From: an uncultured Verrucomicrobiae bacterium
Lineage (GTDB): Bacteria; Verrucomicrobiota; Verrucomicrobiia; Chthoniobacterales; UBA10450
Assembly (NCBI GenBank): GCA_963772365.1
Contig: CAVYXA010000004.1
Span: 64,001-128,000, forward strand
Length of the DNA stretch: 64,000 nucleotides
Reading direction: 5' to 3'
The notes beneath the pieces are model-generated. The model was not told the DNA's origin. It saw only the letters and a program-made list of their open reading frames with translations, and ran no database searches. How positions within the stretch are numbered: the first letter of the stretch is position 1; each line of letters opens with the position of its first letter. A program made the translations under genes and the position numbers. This document shows positions 41,012 through 55,291 of this stretch, in pieces.

Positions 41012-41323
41012 TTACGCGTCGATGTGAATAACCTTCTCATCGGCGAGCCGTTTCAGAAAAGGGAGTTCGGAAGAGGCGGCCCAGATGTCCAGCGGGCCAT
41101 CGTGAAAACCGAACAGCTCGTTTCCGCCCTTCTTGAGGCGAAAATCCTGCGTCGCTTTAATCTTGGCGTTTGTGCACCAGGTATCGGTGAGATGCGGAAA
41201 GTCTGCAGAAAGATAATTCCGACCGTCGATTGTTGCGACGGAGTCACCGCCCGTATCCTTGAACAACCGACGAAAAAATTCCGAATAGCGGGTCGTTCTA
41301 ACTGTGAGTAATCGGTTCTTCAT
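41012..41323 (-). CDS. Putative immunity protein of the Rhs toxin (103 aa)
   Basis: Its ATG overlaps the rhs stop (TAATG). Small ORF in the position typical of an immunity gene. Confidence 0.7.
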   Translation of the reverse strand: MKNRLLTVRTTRYSEFFRRLFKDTGGDSVATIDGRNYLSADFPHLTDTWCTNAKIKATQDFRLKKGGNELFGFHDGPLDIWAASSELPFLKRLADEKVIHIDA

Positions 41324-44300
41324 TAACCCCCGCCACCCCGCCATGTACCGATAACGGCGCGCAAGTTTCTCAAAAAATTGCCGCTCTGTTGGGGCAAATG
41401 GTGGGTTCCGAGACCGTTTCCCCAATCCAAATGGAAGTGCGTTCCCTCTTGCCATTCTCCGGCATTTTTCCAGCGGCCGTATTCAAATCCTCGGAATCTC
41501 GCAAGCTTTAACCCTGCGGCGGTGACCAGAGCCTCCTGCGATACCGTCCCCAAATACTTGCTGATAGCGGTATCTTTGGCACACGGGTCGTAACGATCTG
41601 AAAACGGATCGGCGAACGGAATCAAACCATCTAAACCGGCATAGGCACCTTGTTCAAAATCTGCGGCCCGGTAGTTATCCCATCCCCCGTTGAATCCTTC
41701 GTAATCGCCCACGCCCCACGTCGCTGGATTAGTCAGATACCAAAGACCGAGAGGATCTGTCAGGTTGACGGGATCGTTCCCGACGTAGCCGTACAGATTC
41801 ACGCCTCCATCCTCCCCGATTGGATCGCGGCTTAGCCATCTTGCAGCCACAGCATCGTACTCACGCGTGAGGCTGAAATTCAGACTGCTTCCACTGTGAA
41901 GATAAAATCCTGTAAAGCCGAAATCGGCGTCCTGACCGCCGCTTACCTTGGTTCGGTTACCGTAGGGATCGTAATCGTAACGCGCCTTGATTGCCCCGGT
42001 GCTATTTGTCATCTCCCGGATACTGCCGAGGTGATCACGCAGGTAATAGAAAAGCGTGTTGCCGCTGACAGTCTGCACCCCCTGGGCGTAATAGCGCTTA
42101 ACCACCGCATTGCTATTGTTGCGCTGCTCAGCGACTGTTACCCCCTCCCACACGAATTTCTTTGTGCTGTTGACCGTGTTCCCTGTCTTCTCCACGATCT
42201 TGACACGTCGGCTTAAGCCATCGTAGGTAAATTCGCTTCGATTCGTGGTCCCGGTGTAATTGATTGCCACCAGTCGACTGGCTGCGTCCCATTCGTAGGT
42301 CTTCGTTGCGTCATCAGTCAGATTGCCGTTTAGATCATACGAGAACGTCCGGTTCGAGCCGGAAGAAGCCGTGACCTGATAGTTGTTCGTCTTGACATTC
42401 CCATTCGTATCGGTCGCAACTACGGAGACCGTGTTGTTCCCCGGAACGACATCCACCACTCCGTCGAAATTTCCTGCCCCGTCCACCGTGGCCGCGTTTC
42501 CGCCTACTGTCACGGTCGAGGGTTCATTCACCGTCCCTCTAAAATGCAGCTTGCCTCCTCCGTTCTGGCTCGTCAGTTGATTGAGCTCGTTATAGTTCGA
42601 GGTCGTGATTGTGCTCCGCTCCTGGTTGGTATAGCGGTTGCCAGCCGCGTCGTAATCGTAGTCGTACTGCTTGAGCACTGCCCCGCTTTGCACTTTCTTT
42701 TGCAGCGCACTGCTCAATTGATCAGCCGAATCATATCTGAGAGTGTACGTGCTCGCCGTATTGGCAGCTCCCTGTCTTACCGTCCAACTCGTGATATCGC
42801 CCGCTGCATTGTAGAGATAATCGAACTGCGAAATAATGGCTGCGGAAGGGTTAAGGTTCTTGATCTGTTTCAGGCGCTGATCGCCCAGATTGTCGAAGTA
42901 AGCATACTGAATCTTCTGGCCACCAGGGATATCCTCATGATCAAGTCGGCTGGTCGTGTTCACGTAACTGTAATTAAATGTGCCCAAGACATTGGTCACG
43001 CTCTGCACACGGCCCAATGAGTCATACACCATCGAAGCAGCATTCGCCGCACCATTGATCGAGCGGCCAATCGCCCGGCCCAGCTCATCATACGAGTAGG
43101 TAATGGTGTCGTTGTTGAGCGAGCCATCAACGCTCGCCAGGCGAGCCGAACCGAGCGCGGGCGGCACTGGTACCGGATTGTAACCGTAGCTCGTCAAGCC
43201 GGTACCGTCGTTCATGCTCGCCACCCGGTTGTAAACCGGATCGCAGGTGTACGTGACGCTTGGCGTGGCGATCTGCGCGTTCGTGTAACTGATCTGTTGG
43301 AGGTTGTTGTCGAGGAAATAGCCGTAATTGGTCGTTTGCCCTTTGGCATCAGTCATCGATTTGAGCCGGCTGGTTGTGTCCTCGTATGTGTAATGGGTCG
43401 AGTTTTGGTCGGCATAAATCTTTTCCGTGACTCTGCCCTGAACGTCCCGCACCCAATTGGTCGTGTTGTGGTTTGGATCGGTGATGCCATCCAGGCTGCC
43501 GCAGTTGCACCAATTGTACACCGTGATCCGGTAAAGCGGATCTTGCATCACGATCAGGCGGCGAAGGGCATCATGCCAGTTGTGGCTCCAGCGCCCCAGC
43601 CGGTCCCGGGTCCATTCCGGATCAAGGCGGTCGTAGGTGGTTTCCTCGTAAGTGCCGTCGGGATAGGTGACCTTCGCGATCCGGTCCATTGTCTTCGTGG
43701 GGTCACCGCCAATCGCGTCGTAGTCAATCGTGACCGCGTATCCTTCCGAATCGGTTGCCGTGCGCAGCCGGCCAAAACCGTCGTAAGCAAATGAAGTAAT
43801 CGCACCCGCCACAGGCCCCGTGATGCTCTGGAGATAGCCACTGTTGTCGTAGGCGTAGGTCGTGACTTCGTTTTTTGCGTTTGTAATCGTGTGAATCTGG
43901 CCGTTTGCATAGTAGTCGTAAATCGTGGTCTGGCCCGAAGCGTCCGTCGCGGTGAGGGGCTCGTGTTGTGCGTTGTAGGTATAAGCAGCGACCTTGTCGG
44001 CCGCTTGCCCTTCTGGATCAAGACTGGCTCCGGCCGGGTTCCGTTGATACACGGTGAGCAGGTCGATTCCGTTGGCGTCGTAAGCGTAGCTGGTAACCCG
44101 ACCCAGCGGGTCGGTCACCTTGGTTGTTTTGCCGAAGCCATTGTATTCGTATTGATAAAGCTGGGTAGTGCCGTCATCCATGACACGCGCAACCTTGGAA
44201 GGTTTAAAGATCGTAACGTTCCCCGTCCCGGCGGGCCAGGTCTGCCCGGGATAATTGTTCCAGACCCGATCCTCGAACGGCATTTTGCTGCTTTCGGGGA

Positions 44301-46551
44301 CATCGGAAGCGACATTGATGTCTTCAGTGTGGAGCCAGTGGGTGATGCGCGCCTTGGTGTAGACTCCAGGCGCTTCCGCCATCGCTTTCTTGTCCCAATA
44401 GAAGGTGTCCCGATAATTAATGTATTGGTTGAAGGTGGCGATCTCGGGCGGAACCGTATTGCCTGATTCCGAGAACGGAATGGCTGAGACATTGTTATTA
44501 TATTCGACCCGTTCTTTGGCGCCCTGAGGATCGGTGACTTCAAGCCAGCGATAGCTCGAGCCGGATTCGCCCATGGCGAAGAGCGTATCACCGTATGGCG
44601 TCGTCATTTTGTTGATGAAATCGCCCGTATCGTAGGTGAATTCCGAAACGAGACCAATCGAGTCGGTAATCTTCCACAGTTGCCCGGCTTCGTTGTACTC
44701 CAGTGTGGCGACCCGGCCAAATGGATCGGTCACCTTGGTTACTTTTAGTGGGTCTCCGGTCAGCTCGTAGCTTAGAGTCGTCACCTGACCGATCGCGTCC
44801 GTGATTGCAACCAGGCGAAAGGTCCCATCGTAAGAATAGGCGAGCGCGTTCCCGTGAGGGTCGATTGACTGAGTCATAAACAGCTTGCGCGCCACCGGGG
44901 CGCCATCTGAGACCGCGAAAATCTGCCGAGAACCGTCAGGGAACCGCTTCTCGTATTGATCGGTTCCCAGCTTGACCAGGCTAACCTGGGTCTCGCGTTG
45001 CGGCGCATAGCTTTGAGTGCCGGAGTTAAATCCATTGTAGTGCAGCGTTCCGCCTCCCGGTCCGTAAGCAGTGGCGTCTGCGGCTTCATTGGCCGGATCG
45101 ATGACGATGTAGCTGATCCAATTGAAGCTCCACTTGTTCCCCAGATTGGAATAGGTTGGGGTTTGTACAGGCGCGACCTCGCGCTGCTGATAGGAAACGG
45201 CAAATTTTACTGCGGGTCCGACCGGCGGCGCATAGCTGACCGGTGTGTCGGTGATCGTGAGACTGACCCGGGCGGAGTCGACGTTGTAGTCTGCCATGCC
45301 ATCCGAGCCGCCACATTCTGGCTTAGGACATTTGACCGACGGAGCCACACACGGCGGAGGCGGCTCCGAATTACTGCCAGCGTTGCCCTTCCCCCAGACG
45401 TTCTTTCCTTCCGCTTCGCTGACCGGCTGCCAACCACTGGGCAGATCGCCCGCCGGTACAAGAAAGTAGCCCGACTGCTCCTCGTCGATCGTCTGCTGCG
45501 TGAGGAGCGTGTCGTCGCCAAACGTCGGATCCTGGGCGCGGAACCTTCCATCCTTTTCCTCGATTAAGGCGGCGTAATGGCCTACCCGCCAATTGATCAC
45601 CGAAGGAACGATTATCCTTGCTCCAAGTGAACGCTTTGCCATCTGATATCTCAAACCGAGTTTATCAGCCAGCTTTTTGACCTGAACCAATGACATCCCC
45701 CTATTAGTCGAGGCAGAGGCGAGAATCTCCTTTTGCCGATCGGGGCCGCCCAAATGCGAGGCGGCAAGAATCTGTTTCAACGCCATCGGACCACACCGAA
45801 AAGCGTCTTGCGGACGTGTCCTCATTAACGCTAACCCTTGTCGCGCCGTGGCGACTTTTTCCGTCGCCGCGCCTCGAACGTCGCGGTGATCAATCTCGCC
45901 AAACAGAGCCTCAAGGCGATCTGCTCGGCCCAGCCTGGCATTGAGCTGAGCGAGCTCACCCAAAACATAGTCAGCCAGCGCTCGCTGGCGTGGCTGGGTT
46001 GCCTTTGCGACCAGGGGCCACGCCTCTTCCCAAGCGTCCAGTGCTTTGGACCAGTGACCAGTCGCGCGCCAAATCGCTCCCAAATTGGCGAGCAATGCTG
46101 CTCGCCAAGGGGAAGCAGGGAACTGATTGAGGAAACTAGTAAATCCATCGGCCGCTTCAGGATTGTTCCGGGCAGCGAAATCTTTGATGATCGTTGCCAA
46201 CGCGAAATTTTCCGACGGTGAGGTCCTGCCGCCAACCGGGATCAATGGTTCCCGAAATACGCGTGCCGCTTCAAGCTCACCATCGGTGGGGCTGCTGGAA
46301 AAGTGCATTGCCGATCGCTGACTCATAGGCGGCAGCGTACGATTAGGCCTTGCTCCGCTCGTCGAAGCAAAAAACGTGGCTGCTTGTGCTCGTGGCTTCG
46401 GGGCCGACGAAGTTGTTGTCTCAGTGGTAGCCGCGATCAAAATCTGGACAGGCCAAACAGAGACCGCTTGTGATACTGCCACAAGGTATGAGGTGGCGCG
46501 AAGTCGCCAGTTCAATTGTGACATTCTCTTGGCTGACACCGCGCTTTTCAT
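41323..46551 (-). CDS. Rhs/YD-repeat polymorphic toxin: signal peptide, TPR, C39-peptidase-like domain, YD repeats with Ig-like insert, Rhs core, 139-aa C-terminal toxin
   Basis: YD repeats; core WLSRDPIGEDGGVNLYGYVGNDPVNLTDPLGL; CGPMAL..GMSL..WRVGHYAAL..QDPTFG. Confidence 0.92.
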   Translation of the reverse strand: MKSAVSAKRMSQLNWRLRATSYLVAVSQAVSVWPVQILIAATTETTTSSAPKPRAQAATFFASTSGARPNRTLPPMSQRSAMHFSSSPTDGELEAARVFREPLIPVGGRTSPSENFALATIIKDFAARNNPEAADGFTSFLNQFPASPWRAALLANLGAIWRATGHWSKALDAWEEAWPLVAKATQPRQRALADYVLGELAQLNARLGRADRLEALFGEIDHRDVRGAATEKVATARQGLALMRTRPQDAFRCGPMALKQILAASHLGGPDRQKEILASASTNRGMSLVQVKKLADKLGLRYQMAKRSLGARIIVPSVINWRVGHYAALIEEKDGRFRAQDPTFGDDTLLTQQTIDEEQSGYFLVPAGDLPSGWQPVSEAEGKNVWGKGNAGSNSEPPPPCVAPSVKCPKPECGGSDGMADYNVDSARVSLTITDTPVSYAPPVGPAVKFAVSYQQREVAPVQTPTYSNLGNKWSFNWISYIVIDPANEAADATAYGPGGGTLHYNGFNSGTQSYAPQRETQVSLVKLGTDQYEKRFPDGSRQIFAVSDGAPVARKLFMTQSIDPHGNALAYSYDGTFRLVAITDAIGQVTTLSYELTGDPLKVTKVTDPFGRVATLEYNEAGQLWKITDSIGLVSEFTYDTGDFINKMTTPYGDTLFAMGESGSSYRWLEVTDPQGAKERVEYNNNVSAIPFSESGNTVPPEIATFNQYINYRDTFYWDKKAMAEAPGVYTKARITHWLHTEDINVASDVPESSKMPFEDRVWNNYPGQTWPAGTGNVTIFKPSKVARVMDDGTTQLYQYEYNGFGKTTKVTDPLGRVTSYAYDANGIDLLTVYQRNPAGASLDPEGQAADKVAAYTYNAQHEPLTATDASGQTTIYDYYANGQIHTITNAKNEVTTYAYDNSGYLQSITGPVAGAITSFAYDGFGRLRTATDSEGYAVTIDYDAIGGDPTKTMDRIAKVTYPDGTYEETTYDRLDPEWTRDRLGRWSHNWHDALRRLIVMQDPLYRITVYNWCNCGSLDGITDPNHNTTNWVRDVQGRVTEKIYADQNSTHYTYEDTTSRLKSMTDAKGQTTNYGYFLDNNLQQISYTNAQIATPSVTYTCDPVYNRVASMNDGTGLTSYGYNPVPVPPALGSARLASVDGSLNNDTITYSYDELGRAIGRSINGAANAASMVYDSLGRVQSVTNVLGTFNYSYVNTTSRLDHEDIPGGQKIQYAYFDNLGDQRLKQIKNLNPSAAIISQFDYLYNAAGDITSWTVRQGAANTASTYTLRYDSADQLSSALQKKVQSGAVLKQYDYDYDAAGNRYTNQERSTITTSNYNELNQLTSQNGGGKLHFRGTVNEPSTVTVGGNAATVDGAGNFDGVVDVVPGNNTVSVVATDTNGNVKTNNYQVTASSGSNRTFSYDLNGNLTDDATKTYEWDAASRLVAINYTGTTNRSEFTYDGLSRRVKIVEKTGNTVNSTKKFVWEGVTVAEQRNNSNAVVKRYYAQGVQTVSGNTLFYYLRDHLGSIREMTNSTGAIKARYDYDPYGNRTKVSGGQDADFGFTGFYLHSGSSLNFSLTREYDAVAARWLSRDPIGEDGGVNLYGYVGNDPVNLTDPLGLWYLTNPATWGVGDYEGFNGGWDNYRAADFEQGAYAGLDGLIPFADPFSDRYDPCAKDTAISKYLGTVSQEALVTAAGLKLARFRGFEYGRWKNAGEWQEGTHFHLDWGNGLGTHHLPQQSGNFLRNLRAVIGTWRGGGG

Positions 46552-46554
46552 TCC

Positions 46555-48555
46555 TTAAGGTGAGAGAACCGCGTCAGCGGGTTCAGTTAGCACAATCGTG
46601 GGAGGGGTATGGTCGTTTGGATCGCCCGAGGGAAGCTGCGAACGCGTAGGATCGAGCGGGTAAGCGTCTTGTCCGTCGGGTACGCCATCGCCATCGGAAT
46701 CTGCAGCGAAGGGATTGGTGCCGATCGAGTACCCATAGGTATTCGTGAGACCATCACCGTCGACATCGTTGCTGAGCGGGTCAAAGCCCGCATAATACTC
46801 AGCGCCGTCTGGAACAAGATCTCCGTTCGTGTCCCAATTATAGGGGTCAGTGCCGATTGCTTGTTCTTGTCCGTTCGGAAGACCATCGTCGTCCTGGTCC
46901 AACGCCGGAAAAAGGTATTTCGAATCGAGCGCCCGTATAGCCCCGGCTCTCTCCGCAAAGTTCAAAACATGGTCGTAGACGATCACTTCGGCTATATCGC
47001 CGGCGAAGTTGTCAATGTAAGCTCGACCCAGGAGAGGATCAGAACGAAACGCCACTGTGTTAGTTGTTTCCCGATGTTCCTCTAATCCATCAAAGCGCGC
47101 CACCCATTCGTTCTCCTTCGCACTCACGTTGTAAATGTGATATTCGTCCCAGCTGTGGGGCGGATTGCCTAAGTTGTATTGCACCGTGCTGCCGAAGTCG
47201 TCATAGATGTTCCCGTCAAACCAACAAGGATAACACGCTCCGTAGGTACTGCCGCCAAACGACATCATGCGGTAGTGGCCGCCATCCTTCGCCCCTCGCA
47301 CCACCAGGAAGATCTCCCCCTCCGTTCCCCCGTTCATCAGATTCGGCAGACTTAGCCATTGGTTTCCTCCAAAATGCACAACCGGACGACCATTCAGCTC
47401 GTTCTCCACCAAGGCTGGCTGGTTTGCCCCTGTGTTCTGCACAGCGTGGTTCTCCAAGCCGGATTGATCCACCCAGTAGTCAATTGGATTGGTCGTCGCA
47501 TCGGCCTTTAACCACAAACGCATGTTATTCAATGGCATTCCAACACCGAACGGAGGAAGCGACGCAGTTGCTTCATTCGAGGGTAGCGATAGGCCCGCAA
47601 AATTACTGGCACTGACGCGATACGTATAAGTTTCACCCGCTTGCAGCGCAGCATCGATGTAGCTACGCCCTGGCACCCTTGCAATTTCGGTGAAAGCTCC
47701 AGCGCCTACTTTGCGCTCCACGATGAACTCAGTCGCATCGTTCACTGTAGGGTAATCCCAAATTACGCTCGTTTCATCAGCAGAGATGGCGTGAGCGCCA
47801 AGATTCGTCGGCGTCGTTGGATCTGCCACCAATGCATATTTGCTTCCCAGATATGTGTCCGTCGTTCGGCGCTCCGCAGAGCTCAAGACGCGGTCGTAGA
47901 CGATCACTTCGGCTATATCTCCGGCGAAGTTGTCAACGTAAGCTCGGCCCAGGAGAGGATCAGAACGAAATGCCACGGTGTTCGTTGCTTCTCTGTGTTC
48001 CTCCAATCCATCAAAGCGTGCCACCCATTCGTTCGCTTTCGCACTTACATTGTAGATGTGGTACTCGGGCCAGCTCTGGGGCGGATTGCCTAAATTGTAT
48101 TGCGCCGTGCTACCGAAGTCGTCATAGATGTTCCCGTCGAACCAACAAGGATAACATGCTCCGTAGGTACTAGTGCCAAAGTGCATCATGCGGTAGTGAC
48201 CGCCATCCTGCGCCCCTCGCACCACCATGAAAATCTCGCCTTCGCTTGCCGTGTTCATGAAGTTCGGCAACGTAAAATATTCGCCGCCGCTGAAATGGAC
48301 GATTGGCAATCCGTTTAGACCATTCTGAGTGAAAAATGGTTGCTGACCGCTGTTCGGTTGCGTCGCGTCTGAGGAGTTTCCAGATTGGTCCTGCCAAATG
48401 CTGATCCTTCCATTTGAATCATAAACAACGCCGAAGTCGGCCCGTAGCCAGAGTCTGAGTCCTTCAGTGACTGGCAAAGTTTGAGAGCCAGCCGTCGCCC
48501 TGAGTATCATTGCGAAGCTTAGAACCCGTATGATTCTTCGGCATTCAGTGCGCAC
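46555..48555 (-). CDS. Secreted LamG/ConA-like x2 + FN3 + TSP3-like Ca-binding repeat protein
   Basis: LRLWLxAD..W.DQSG..GDIAEVIVYD twice; PTTPTNL..YTYRVSASN; DQDDDGLPN/DTNGD/DVDGDG/DSDGDG repeats. Lies 3 nt upstream of rhs. Start uncertain. Confidence 0.8.
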   Translation of the reverse strand: MRTECRRIIRVLSFAMILRATAGSQTLPVTEGLRLWLRADFGVVYDSNGRISIWQDQSGNSSDATQPNSGQQPFFTQNGLNGLPIVHFSGGEYFTLPNFMNTASEGEIFMVVRGAQDGGHYRMMHFGTSTYGACYPCWFDGNIYDDFGSTAQYNLGNPPQSWPEYHIYNVSAKANEWVARFDGLEEHREATNTVAFRSDPLLGRAYVDNFAGDIAEVIVYDRVLSSAERRTTDTYLGSKYALVADPTTPTNLGAHAISADETSVIWDYPTVNDATEFIVERKVGAGAFTEIARVPGRSYIDAALQAGETYTYRVSASNFAGLSLPSNEATASLPPFGVGMPLNNMRLWLKADATTNPIDYWVDQSGLENHAVQNTGANQPALVENELNGRPVVHFGGNQWLSLPNLMNGGTEGEIFLVVRGAKDGGHYRMMSFGGSTYGACYPCWFDGNIYDDFGSTVQYNLGNPPHSWDEYHIYNVSAKENEWVARFDGLEEHRETTNTVAFRSDPLLGRAYIDNFAGDIAEVIVYDHVLNFAERAGAIRALDSKYLFPALDQDDDGLPNGQEQAIGTDPYNWDTNGDLVPDGAEYYAGFDPLSNDVDGDGLTNTYGYSIGTNPFAADSDGDGVPDGQDAYPLDPTRSQLPSGDPNDHTPPTIVLTEPADAVLSP
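46971..48237. repeat. Internal ~345-nt direct repeat (46971-47316 and 47892-48237)
   Basis: Offset 921 nt. Near-identical peptides such as STYGACYPCWFDGNIYDDFGST occur in both LamG-like domains. Confidence 0.92.
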
Positions 48556-48839
48556 AATGTGCGATGAATAGAAAATGAAGTTTTGATAGGCAAGACTTTT
48601 TTGTGTCACAAATTTTGAACCAGCGCGATCGGCCAATGCGAACGCTGCCCGCACGGCTCCGAACAGTTGCCCCGTGCAAACAGGGGTAAAGATCCAACTC
48701 TTTTCCGCCAACGCGAACGCGGTGAGACCGTGCCGGGAGTGTCCGCCTGCGCGCCCACGAGAGGTCGCGGGCTGTTATTCCACCTGATGATGTCGCTGCT
48801 ACGCGGCCAGAGCGGTCCGTAAATTGCCCGCTCAGCTTG

Positions 48840-52708: not shown

Positions 52709-54322
52709 TCAGGCTTCGCCGGAATGGATGATTTGCTTCAATTGCTGAACTACCTGTTTCCGAGCATCGCTATCATCAGCGCAGCCCCACACCGCAATCT
52801 CGAGCATTTGCGCGCCCACTTCGCGCCTTCCATGCAATGCCGCTCGAATACGTCCCCAGGCTGTCCAGTCTTCTTGCTCAGCTGCGGCCACATTTCTGTA
52901 GGACGACCGCGCGTCCCAGTAACAATAGAAGACGTGTAGTGGCACACCATGATCGTCGAACAAATAGGAGCGCAGCGGCAAGTCAGCGCCATTGATGTTG
53001 GCTAACCAGAATCCGCTGTCGCGTATCATGGTGAGGCCACTGGCAGGAAGGCATTTTTCCGGTCGATGGATTTTTACAAAGAGAGCAGCCGTGCGACCCG
53101 GCAGCCAATGAAAGAAGTACATCAGCCAATGGTGGCCATCCGGCGAGGTCCAACCCGCGCCTCCGCCATCGTCGTAGCGAAGCATCCTTGCCGCCTCGGG
53201 TGAGATTGGAACCGACTTGAAGTCCGCCTCGGATTTTGGCCAGGAAACAGCCCAGCGCGAATGGGGCGGTACGCGATGCAACCCGTACCAAAATTGAGCG
53301 CCGATCTCAGACAAAACCAACCAGAGAGTCAGCGCGGCGAGCAAGGGCAACTGCCGGCGGAAACGTTGCGTAATTTGAAAGATGTCGTTTGAGGAGTCGA
53401 GCCGCCGCGCCATTATTTTGCGATTCTCATGCCGGCGCATGAACAGACTCAGAAACCAAAGACCAAAAAGGCAAATCAGCAGAATGGTTAAACCAGCCGG
53501 ATCATGCCAGTTTTCTAAAGCATCGGTCCCGCGGTTCGCTCCGATCCACACCAGAATTGCTGTGCGCACAACATTGCTGATGAATGCGAGGATCCCGCCG
53601 GCCAACAGCAGAAACAGGCGGCGATACATCGTAAATGAGTAGAGTTCGCCCAGAAACAGCGAGATCATCAGTGTGGCTTGGAGTGACCGGACACCGCTGC
53701 AGGCTTCTTCAATTCCAATGAGGCCCGAGGTAACTTCAATCACGTTTCCATGTTGGAGTGCGGGAATGCCGGCGGCATTCAGGCCGGCAACATTGATCGC
53801 AGTCACCGCCCGCATTAGGCCTTGAATTACGAATTGCTCAAACCGAACAGGCCACGGAACAGCCACCAGAACAAAGCAAAAAGGGAAAGCAAAATGCCGC
53901 AGCCACGGCGCGCCGCCGATCAAATAAATTAAGCAAAGAGAAATCGTAAGCGCGATAAAAGCGAGTCCCCAACTGAGCAAGCGCCAATCTGGATTTGCTT
54001 CCGACAGAAATCGAATCGGAAGAAGAAGAAAGCTGAAAACAACAGTGGTAGCGATGGGAAAAGCTCGAGATTTCGGTGCGCTCCGCGATGATGGACGTTC
54101 CGGCCAGCGTTGCCAAAGAAGAAGAAAAATCGCGAGAAATGGAACCGCCCAACCGTAGCTGTACTGAGGGTTAAACGTCCACTCATTGCTCAAATGCTTG
54201 AAAACCTCAGCCCAGAGGAAAACCAAAAAGCCCAGGAACAATGAAGTCGGCCAGAGCGCGGGCGTAGTAGATGTCGATCGGAAAGAAATTGTGCGCGCCA
54301 TTACGGTTTTCATCGCCGGCAT
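52709..54322 (-). CDS. Exosortase fused to an EpsI-like C-terminal domain
   Basis: Multiple TM segments; QYSYG, EEACSGVRS (Cys), NVVR (Arg), WHD (His); C-terminal HRPEKCLPASG. Start uncertain. Confidence 0.88.
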   Translation of the reverse strand: MPAMKTVMARTISFRSTSTTPALWPTSLFLGFLVFLWAEVFKHLSNEWTFNPQYSYGWAVPFLAIFLLLWQRWPERPSSRSAPKSRAFPIATTVVFSFLLLPIRFLSEANPDWRLLSWGLAFIALTISLCLIYLIGGAPWLRHFAFPFCFVLVAVPWPVRFEQFVIQGLMRAVTAINVAGLNAAGIPALQHGNVIEVTSGLIGIEEACSGVRSLQATLMISLFLGELYSFTMYRRLFLLLAGGILAFISNVVRTAILVWIGANRGTDALENWHDPAGLTILLICLFGLWFLSLFMRRHENRKIMARRLDSSNDIFQITQRFRRQLPLLAALTLWLVLSEIGAQFWYGLHRVPPHSRWAVSWPKSEADFKSVPISPEAARMLRYDDGGGAGWTSPDGHHWLMYFFHWLPGRTAALFVKIHRPEKCLPASGLTMIRDSGFWLANINGADLPLRSYLFDDHGVPLHVFYCYWDARSSYRNVAAAEQEDWTAWGRIRAALHGRREVGAQMLEIAVWGCADDSDARKQVVQQLKQIIHSGEA

Positions 54323-54579
54323 AGCGTAGCGAAGTCCGAGCAGGTTGCGAGCCGCTTTGCTCCGCCGTTCATGTGTCCGACTGACTGTGGGTAGGATTGT
54401 TCGCCGAAATTCAATTCGCGGAAATATCCACTCGCCGCGCAAACTGGTCGAAGAGGATTCTATTGTTCTCGATGGTGTGATCGCCGGAGTATTTTTTTTG
54501 ACGGAATTTTCCTTGACCTCAGCGAGCGGGGCTGTCTAAAAGAGAACTCGAAACTACCGTTTTCGTGGGATGCGATTGT

Positions 54580-54616
54580 TATTGACGAGCGCAGCGCGAA
54601 TATGATAATTATGGAA
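54580..54616 (+). promoter_or_regulatory. Promoter motif TATTGACG-N13-TATGATAATTATGGAA
   Basis: TTGACG, 16 nt, GATAAT upstream of the PEP-CTERM gene. A copy lies at 57675-57711 on the minus strand. Confidence 0.65.
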
Positions 54617-54640
54617 ATCATCAGATAAACATCGAATCTT

Positions 54641-55291
54641 ATGAAGCTATCTAACAAGTTAATCGTCGCTCTTTTCGCCCTTTTTTTCCTCGCCAGCACT
54701 TCGGCGAATGCGGTTGTCGTCACTTGGGACCTCAATCCAACTAATGCAAATGGCGCCGTTGGATCGACAAGTCATACTTTCAATCAGAGCGGCTATCCCA
54801 TCACCGCGTATGGATTCGACAGGGTGTTCGGCCCGGATACCCCCCATGAACTCTATTACAAAAACGTTAATATTGACCATGGCCTCGGGCTCGTAAACAC
54901 GCTAGATAATGAGCTTCAGACCAACAACTACATTCAGTTCGACTTCAATTCTATTTTGACGCAAGGCTTCTCAGACGGTCAGATCAAAGTCAGCAGTGTC
55001 GATCCGGGTGAGTCATTCAACCTCTATGGCTCGAACACTCTGGGCAGCATTGGAACACTGCTAAACGGGTCACCCTACGGCAGCAATACCAACAATAGTT
55101 GGATCGATATCCCGAACTTCGGCAATTATAGATACGTTTCAGTGATCGCGGCGGTCGACGATGTGCTTCCATGGGCTATCCGAGCGACGGTCACCCCCAT
55201 TCCGGAAGCATCAACCGTGATTCCGGTTATCCTCCTGGTGATCGGTGCAACCGCGTTCGAGGTCCGTCGGCGCCATCGGGCCACTGCGTAG
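54641..55291 (+). CDS. PEP-CTERM-type sorted surface protein
   Basis: Signal peptide; C-terminal TPIPE + TM helix + RRRHR; divergent from the exosortase gene. Confidence 0.85.
   Translation: MKLSNKLIVALFALFFLASTSANAVVVTWDLNPTNANGAVGSTSHTFNQSGYPITAYGFDRVFGPDTPHELYYKNVNIDHGLGLVNTLDNELQTNNYIQFDFNSILTQGFSDGQIKVSSVDPGESFNLYGSNTLGSIGTLLNGSPYGSNTNNSWIDIPNFGNYRYVSVIAAVDDVLPWAIRATVTPIPEASTVIPVILLVIGATAFEVRRRHRATA

Follow-up and report, generated by a model that had tools for sequence, protein, structure and literature searches.

Does the end of one protein supply the strand that is missing from a domain built into its neighbor? This question is raised by two adjoining genes in a 64,000-nucleotide stretch of DNA (the window) from an uncultured Verrucomicrobiae bacterium (contig CAVYXA010000004.1, positions 64,001 to 128,000). 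One gene encodes a polymorphic toxin of the Rhs type whose YD repeats are interrupted by an immunoglobulin (Ig)-like domain; the other, located just upstream, encodes a partner protein with a short C-terminal tail. The original prediction, made from the DNA letters, had proposed that the insert is an Ig domain minus its first strand, that the tail is that strand, and that donor-strand complementation clips a lectin-like targeting protein onto the toxin shell. Translation bore out its description of both elements, with 42370-42552 interrupting the YD repeats and yielding the 61 residues that had been given, and the upstream gene, 3 nt away, ending at 46555-46614 in the expected 19 residues followed by TAA. 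The features central to the question are as follows.

46555..48711, minus strand: partner gene, longest open reading frame (ORF) 718 aa.
46642..46899, minus strand: acidic Ca-binding repeats of the TSP3 type directly ahead of the tail (TSP3_bac; end of the run judged by eye).
46555..46614, minus strand: proposed C-terminal donor tail, 19 aa plus TAA, equivalent to strands A and A' of a glucodextranase-B-type Ig domain.
41323..46551, minus strand: Rhs polymorphic toxin gene, 1742 aa, with RHS_repeat, YD_repeat_2x and Rhs_assc_core over cut-off.
42370..42552, minus strand: proposed acceptor, a six-stranded Ig domain (strands B-G), 61 residues, Rhs aa 1334-1394.

An Ig domain split between two neighboring genes

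The Pfam family Glucodextran_B matched the insert over profile positions 22-81 of 83 (E 2.5e-8), so that the first 21 positions are missing from it, as expected of an Ig domain lacking its first strand. The insert was found in all 120 of the homologues listed, out of 326 found. When modeled alone it was predicted to form a six-stranded sandwich with a predicted local distance difference test score (pLDDT) of 92-98, compared to 86-92 within the model of the whole shell. Its best structural match among 48,161 chains was residues 706-772 of glucodextranase 1ULV, with 63 residues aligned at a root-mean-square deviation of 1.9 and a Z of 7.6, values of Z below 8 being counted as middling; we take domain B of 1ULV to begin near residue 685. 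The best hit of the insert alignment among PDB sequences was SraP (E 0.0025). Relatives that lack the insert join the two flanking shell strands directly, which places the insert in a turn of the shell. An Ig domain that runs from strand B to strand G has its two ends at the same pole and is suited to insertion, and the insert probably faces outward from the shell. A strand-less insert is also present in P0095, which has a DUF6531 N-terminus, and in P0341, P0345 and P0350, which have different flanks; it is thus not confined to the family of Rhs proteins with a C39-like domain to which the window protein belongs.

We determined the register of the tail relative to the insert by use of a 12-column score built from 28 partner tails only, which was applied to the 40 residues ahead of each insert-profile match in 148 proteins of a representative search. 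Among insert-like Ig domains outside a YD context, 160 of 204 scored at least 10 bits, 150 of these at an offset of 21 residues. This compares to a background of 9.6% for random 40-mers from the same proteins. Thirteen of the 43 proteins in the non-YD set turned out to be Rhs proteins missed by the YD pattern, and their best scores were all below 0. No Rhs insert reached 10 bits, either in a YD context (0/48) or among the listed homologues (0/120). Because the offset is fixed, the 19-residue tail can be assigned to positions -21 to -3 before strand B, the place of strands A and A', and the identification of the tail with the missing first strand is upheld. We also considered a donor strand located within the Rhs protein itself. 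This candidate was rejected, a hidden Markov model (HMM) of the tail finding nothing at 5 bits or above in 120 whole Rhs proteins; the looser 12-column score gave 10-14 bits in 18 of the 120, but at positions that were scattered and not equivalent to one another. The Rhs chain contains strands B-G and the fold of a Glucodextran_B-type Ig domain, and strand A/A' is absent from that chain.

Linkage was examined in both directions, beginning with the Rhs genes. We collected 154 loci of the Rhs family (78 from genomes and 76 from metagenomes, the best 80 being taken per search); an alignment of the insert alone was too variable to serve as a query. Set aside were 27 loci that lacked the Rhs N-terminus, 17 that had no DNA upstream, 20 without coverage of the insert position (3 of them with a tail), and L118, a borderline case with a divergent tail by eye. 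Tails were recognized by P-x-[IVLF]-x-[ILVMF]-x-x-P close to a stop codon, a pattern that resembles the motif of the original prediction and was drawn up after a first result. A tail lay upstream of 28 of the 32 insert-bearing Rhs genes compared to none of the 57 insert-less ones, consistent with the expectation that adjacent genes end in the tail whatever their other domains. Away from the position preceding an Rhs gene, the pattern fitted only 22 of 4505 ORF ends; given also the insert in all 120 listed homologues, neither element is a chance match. The Rhs proteins of L146 and L182 are identical, as are those of L122 and L123, and 10 of the 57 insert-less loci were inspected by eye. Among the four misses, the tail of L098 lies behind a stop codon on a contig with evident sequence errors, the tails of L101 and L105 differ from the pattern by one residue, and L181 is discussed below. 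The 28 loci with both elements come from Verrucomicrobiota, Acidobacteriota, Bacteroidota, Planctomycetota, Myxococcota and Binatota, with the remainder consisting of one bin labeled Bifidobacteriaceae and 12 metagenome contigs. A carrier that can be cultured is Chthoniobacter flavus Ellin428 (locus L068). In 18 discovery regions divergent inserts accompany divergent tails, in some cases with a small gene between; divergent inserts were recognized by eye in G226, G073 and G395.

Variations upon the two-gene arrangement were also observed. In a divergent clade (L035, L039, L043, L044) a conserved gene of 165-190 aa with a signal-peptide-like start lies between partner and Rhs and may encode a third component. 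Shorter tails without the first proline pair are found at L047, L048 and the second upstream gene of L038, in each case upstream of very divergent inserts, and L038 has two tail-like genes in tandem.

In the reverse direction, the tail alignment was run against 351 genomes of the order and gave 30 matches besides the window, 29 of them with loci. These comprised 22 C-terminal tails and 7 others, judged by eye to be 3 first strands of intact Ig domains and 4 spurious-looking matches. The start of an Rhs gene directly followed 19 of the 22 tails; two tails lay at a contig edge and one (G733) had no Rhs within 12 kb. Fifteen of the 19 Rhs genes extend to the insert position and all 15 contain the insert (2 repeat loci had already been counted), the others being cut by contig ends in 3 cases and an N-terminal Rhs remnant in 1. 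A search of 401 genomes of the phylum gave, apart from the window, 9 matches, of which 4 belonged to pairs already known and 1 was a tail located at the end of a contig; 2 others were first strands of intact Ig domains and 2 were spurious. In G033, where the tail is at a contig end, an insert-bearing Rhs was not found in the 240-contig draft. At L261 (G733:C6:1-12000) and L215 the end of a tail gene is found at the contig edge with no Rhs within 12 kb, and by eye the ORF that follows the tail resembles a group II intron reverse transcriptase. Within the window genome, which is 90% complete, a single ORF gave a strong match to the insert, and the tail pattern fitted 8 of 4245 ORF ends, one of which reads as a true tail; the sole strong insert match and the sole true tail are the two neighboring genes.

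The partner of the window consists of a signal-peptide-like start, LamG, Fn3, a further LamG, the TSP3-type repeats and the tail, based on matches to Laminin_G_3 (two stretches), fn3 and TSP3_bac (E 1.7e-4, best stretch aa 605-623) that are all below the curated cut-offs. Partners with the tail range from 278 to 3076 aa and have the tail but not their other domains in common. Of 41 partners, 30 were scanned for domains, which revealed RCC1 propellers in 11, LamG in 11 and TSP3 in 17, as well as PKD, Calx-beta, Fn3 and beta-helix domains. The description of the partner as lectin-like thus fits the LamG domains of the window protein, but not the 11 of 30 partners that have RCC1 propellers instead or as well. 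The tail is singled out by being the part that the partners have in common. Two tail prolines are the only invariant columns in a 40-residue alignment of partner ends, and the tail is present in some partners without TSP3 repeats (e.g. L033, L037 and L182). In the 120 homologues listed for the end of the partner, the tail was matched 49 times, 48 of them at the C-terminus. The tail alignment gave nothing useful against Pfam and PDB sequences, for which it is too short. The split of the Ig domain in exact register, the two-way gene linkage and the partner diversity are observations made by computation; the two genes form a real, conserved system that is marked by the precise division of a domain between them, the pairing recurring in several phyla.

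Proposed docking of the partner and alternatives to it

We propose, with a probability of roughly three in four, that the tail docks onto the Rhs insert by strand complementation. Partner and Rhs would be exported separately, each by means of its signal-peptide-like start. The Rhs protein would fold into a cocoon that holds the toxin, with the six-stranded Ig domain projecting from its wall; such a domain can be accommodated inside a beta-turn because the loss of strand A puts both its ends at one pole. The last 19 residues of the partner would then bind as strand A/A' and complete the Ig domain in trans, giving a one-to-one, non-covalent complex of partner and Rhs. This joint would stay constant while the remainder of the partner is swapped over evolution, and the partner would most likely confer binding to surfaces upon a toxin that lacks an injection machine. 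If the split-Ig socket is a standard one that takes any donor-strand partner, then target choice and payload could evolve as independent cassettes. The two-protein receptor-binding system of the original prediction is in this respect upheld in part: the split Ig is supported by sequence, by the structure of the insert and by two-way co-occurrence, and the targeting role is deduced from domain families. We consider the chances to be even that the partner directs the toxin to its target cells, as suggested by the types of domain it contains, their turnover and the absence of any evident anchor. Slightly less probable is the broader proposal of an Rhs toxin class of soil and water bacteria, exported by signal peptide, in which a plug-in receptor-binding protein replaces the injection machine. 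We only infer a ligand for the partner and toxicity for the C-terminal domain of the Rhs. Release of the toxin through a secretin is plausible, because with the queries used on the 90% complete window genome TssC was not found and VgrG was not over cut-off, while three secretins were over cut-off, with a weak fourth.

Two further analyses address the docking proposal. A tree of 95 Rhs proteins was built with the insert columns excluded. This tree requires 5 or more changes of insert state, 4 of these being forced by supported branches, and within a Bacteroidota clade that has both elements, L058 lacks insert as well as tail; in four independent pairs the tail was never opposite to the insert. 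The complex prediction that had been suggested as a check was performed with ESMFold2, the inputs being an alignment of the insert region (151 residues) and one of the 40 C-terminal residues of the partner. The interface score ipSAE was 0.48 for the pair and 0.00 for the best of 3 controls, with no interface reported; contacts agreed by at least 94% among runs and partner pLDDT was at least 56. The mark for a complex was reached by 116 of 157 solved pairs and 2 of 215 mismatched pairs, with 18 of the 157 solved pairs and both mismatches doing so at scores of 0.60 or below. This modeling lends weak support to physical binding between tail and insert. None of the findings named beforehand as contrary to docking was made, these being an insert completed by sequence internal to the Rhs, no confident interface with the peptide, and a failure of insert and peptide to co-occur, though the support from the complex is weak and its prediction showed no interface.

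A potential concern is that several observations weigh against docking. At their core, Rhs inserts retain the hydrophobic residues of intact domains in all columns but three: column 4 has F in place of V and column 58 has Y in place of I/V, both of them bulkier, and column 56 is polar, changes that could shield the strand-A groove. It is also possible that the insert is a self-sufficient domain, because its modeled pLDDT is high without any donor strand. The supported branches provide only 4 independent contrasts (sign test p 0.125-0.25), so few that p cannot reach 0.05, and co-variation of insert and tail beyond shared ancestry was not detected by a mirror-tree analysis of 26 pairs (partial r 0.13, p 0.18). 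It is the partner gene as a whole, not the tail alone, that is absent at insert-less Rhs genes, and of the 42 proteins that cluster with the partner 41 are from insert-bearing loci; linkage by itself therefore cannot tell the tail from the rest of the partner. The complex score may be raised by likeness to intact Ig domains. Individual exceptions are L181, a 5'-truncated Rhs that has the insert but no partner; L046, with a divergent insert by eye and no tail upstream; G733 and G520, with tails but no complete Rhs; and P0165, with the sole internal tail (about residues 245-270), followed by PKD-type domains. The high pLDDT of the insert alone, the bulkier core residues, the scarcity of independent contrasts and the null result for co-variation speak for a reading in which the tail does not bind, with the insert then a stable six-stranded receptor-binding or hinge module and the tail either a relic of an ancestral gene split, retained through inheritance of the operon, or a sorting signal recognized by some other component. 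An unused relic, however, would not keep P-x-I-x-L-x-x-P and A' over Rhs proteins 29-53% identical and partner bodies that are unrelated, and neither the lack of a tail gene beside all 57 insert-less Rhs nor the adjoining positions of the one true tail and one insert of the window genome is accounted for, making this explanation improbable.

Binding might instead be mediated by the TSP3-type repeats or the linker ahead of the tail. TSP3_bac is found in 17 of the 30 partners, and the 40-residue chain used in the complex run contained the end of the repeat region, no interface being reported. We consider this highly unlikely given that the tail occurs where the repeats are absent, that its two prolines are the only invariant columns of the alignment, and that the register match would be left unexplained. 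The main rival to the targeting role accepts the same joint but gives it another purpose, the partner tethering the Rhs to the surface or matrix of the producer, stabilizing its fold, or aiding export through a secretin. No ligand is known for any partner; MafA, an adhesin whose gene accompanies those of MafB toxins, proved to be their secretion factor (PMC7738311); and in teneurin-like proteins the variable adhesion domains are presumed to control how the protein is displayed on the producing cell (PMC13018210). On the other hand, crude scans of 19 complete partners revealed a lipobox-like pattern in 1 and a 19-residue window of mean hydropathy above 1.8 past residue 100 in 0, the 57 insert-less relatives manage without a partner, so that a partner is not needed for export in general, and the extreme turnover of domains fits ligand choice better than a fixed role in export. 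Display or export help is on balance less likely than targeting, but is a serious alternative to it. Docking of the tail by strand complementation is common to both and is the reading we prefer.

The Rhs protein and its genomic setting

The remaining features of the locus are these.

45454..45798, minus strand: C39-like peptidase domain (Peptidase_C39, 22.9 bits, cut-off 22; C253, H325 and D341).
41734..45264, minus strand: YD-repeat shell (cocoon) and Rhs core, based on AlphaFold2 and structure matches.
41743..41973, minus strand: Rhs-associated core (TIGR03696, 72 bits, cut-off 32.5), with D1576, D1599 and a DPxG end.
41323..41742, minus strand: variable C-terminal domain, a putative toxin by position and homologues, with no Pfam match.
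41012..41323, minus strand: putative immunity gene by position, 103 aa, its ATG overlapping the Rhs stop (TAATG).

The Rhs protein begins with a weakly hydrophobic, signal-peptide-like start, followed by a TPR-like helical part (TPR_2, weak), the C39-like domain, the YD shell, the Rhs core and the C-terminal domain. Among 40 aligned homologues the C39-like residues are conserved in 35 (Cys), 40 (His) and 40 (Asp), the Cys being replaced by Ser in the other 5, and in some relatives the domain is missing entirely (profile match from near position 380). The substrate of the domain might be the Rhs protein itself. In the AlphaFold2 model of aa 430-1606 (pLDDT 90, predicted template modeling score 0.83) the YD repeats form a closed beta-spiral shell; the closest structures are Rhs cores of type VI secretion systems (T6SS; 8QJC, TMq 0.75), with teneurin-type chains ranking lower. 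D1576 and D1599, which we take from known Rhs proteins to be the catalytic aspartates of the autoprotease motif, are each kept in 40/40 homologues. The shell also has a CxC motif at aa 1015-1017 (about 43501-43509, minus strand), each Cys being found in 35/40. Among Pfam and TIGRFAM-type profiles PAAR was not matched in the Rhs protein, and no Pfam match to TTR, FN-plug or NHL propeller was found, the region before the shell being occupied by the C39-like domain.

By gene order, the C-terminal domain is a putative toxin and the 103-aa gene its putative immunity gene. An Atlas search with the C-terminal domain gave a weak lead to MafB clusters (score 0.90, low recognition); for the 103-aa gene there was no family match and the Atlas search was likewise empty. 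Across the family the C-terminal domains are varied and of antibacterial type; those of 14 homologues, 12 of them picked by their precomputed labels, include HNH (EHHH, LHH), REase-9, Ntox37, colicin M, Tlde1, YkuD, M91 and HINT. In L037, L053 and L109 repeated C-terminal modules lie downstream of the full Rhs, and these orphan modules start at, within or shortly before the insert. The sequences of these three loci suggest that the insert may serve also as a recombination point for toxin exchange.

The database gene call for the partner is 651 aa, and translation probably starts at V53 (48555) or M68 (48510) rather than at the start of the longest ORF. Only 3 nt (GGA) separate the partner stop from the Rhs ATG, and the two genes are in the same frame. 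A single gene interrupted by a false stop was ruled out because the gap modulo 3 varies among the 28 loci (8/11/9); as weak evidence to the same effect, no relatives of 3050-5000 aa with the joint region were found. In GC content the locus (0.52-0.56) resembles its flanks (0.54-0.55). Another neighbor in the window is a ThiS/MoaD gene, and at 52709-55291 there is a presumed exosortase-like gene (minus strand) near a presumed PEP-CTERM-type gene (plus strand). Other Rhs genes or fragments of the genome (G000 C1:777028-782595, C1:1080295-1084836 and C3:399199-406301) all lack both the insert and an upstream tail.

Comparison with known systems

The locus is a member of the Rhs/YD polymorphic toxin family and is neither T6SS-linked nor a chaperone-usher system. 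In chaperone-usher and type V pili an Ig fold that is incomplete receives its missing strand in trans from the end of another subunit; in the chaperone-usher pilins this strand is G, the donor is an N-terminal extension and the subunits polymerize. In the window the acceptor instead lacks strand A, the donor is C-terminal and the pairing would be one-to-one, with no chaperone or usher gene beside the locus. With the Rhs cocoons of T6SS (Salmonella bongori Rhs 8QJC, RhsA 7Q97 and Tse15 8UY4) the window protein shares the YD shell, the two-aspartate core, the variable C-terminal domain and a small downstream gene. It differs from them in having no PAAR or VgrG link, but instead a signal-peptide-like start and a C39-like domain, and in the Ig insert of its wall; the outer surfaces of T6SS Rhs proteins are described as smooth and without protrusions (10.1101/2024.02.26.582050).

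The bacterial teneurin-like proteins (BiTLP, 9IFO; PMC13018210) are likewise YD-shell toxins; they are exported by Sec, come with immunity genes and adhesion domains of variable type, and lack an obvious machine for delivery. In these proteins the adhesion domains form the N-terminal part of the toxin chain itself (PMC13018210, PMC6425310), whereas that of the window would be a separate gene product attached by a split Ig. The way in which Rhs and teneurin-like cocoons reach and enter a target cell without an injection machine is an open question, stated as such for the teneurin-like proteins (PMC13018210), for which this locus offers a concrete and testable accessory subunit and a 19-residue joint. 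The MafA-MafB-MafI system of Neisseria (PMC7738311) similarly combines an adhesin-type gene with a signal-peptide polymorphic toxin and an immunity gene; MafA is an outer-membrane protein required for MafB secretion, and neither an Rhs shell nor a split domain is reported in the abstract. A search of the open literature, with subscription journals outside its scope, found no description of an Ig insert in an Rhs wall or of a donor-tail partner. The system is not described in the accessible parts of PMC3482391, 10.1101/2024.02.26.582050 or 10.1101/2023.11.21.568195, and the supplements of PMC3482391 and PMC13018210 may list such architectures.

A parallel to the proposed joint is BppU-BppA of Lactococcus phage Tuc2009, in which a C-terminal extension completes the Ig-like sandwich of another protein and attaches an optional carbohydrate-binding module (PMC4742702). 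That joint is part of a phage baseplate, with a scaffold hairpin as donor and an acceptor located on the binding protein (PMC4742702); at the window locus the donor would be the single first strand of the binding protein and the acceptor lies within the scaffold. The proposed system would add polymorphic toxins to the pili and phage baseplates in which strand complementation is known, with the unusual geometry of an acceptor set inside another fold and a first strand donated by a C-terminus, and the tail could serve as a marker by which many large hypothetical proteins with RCC1, LamG or TSP3 domains are assigned to toxin loci.

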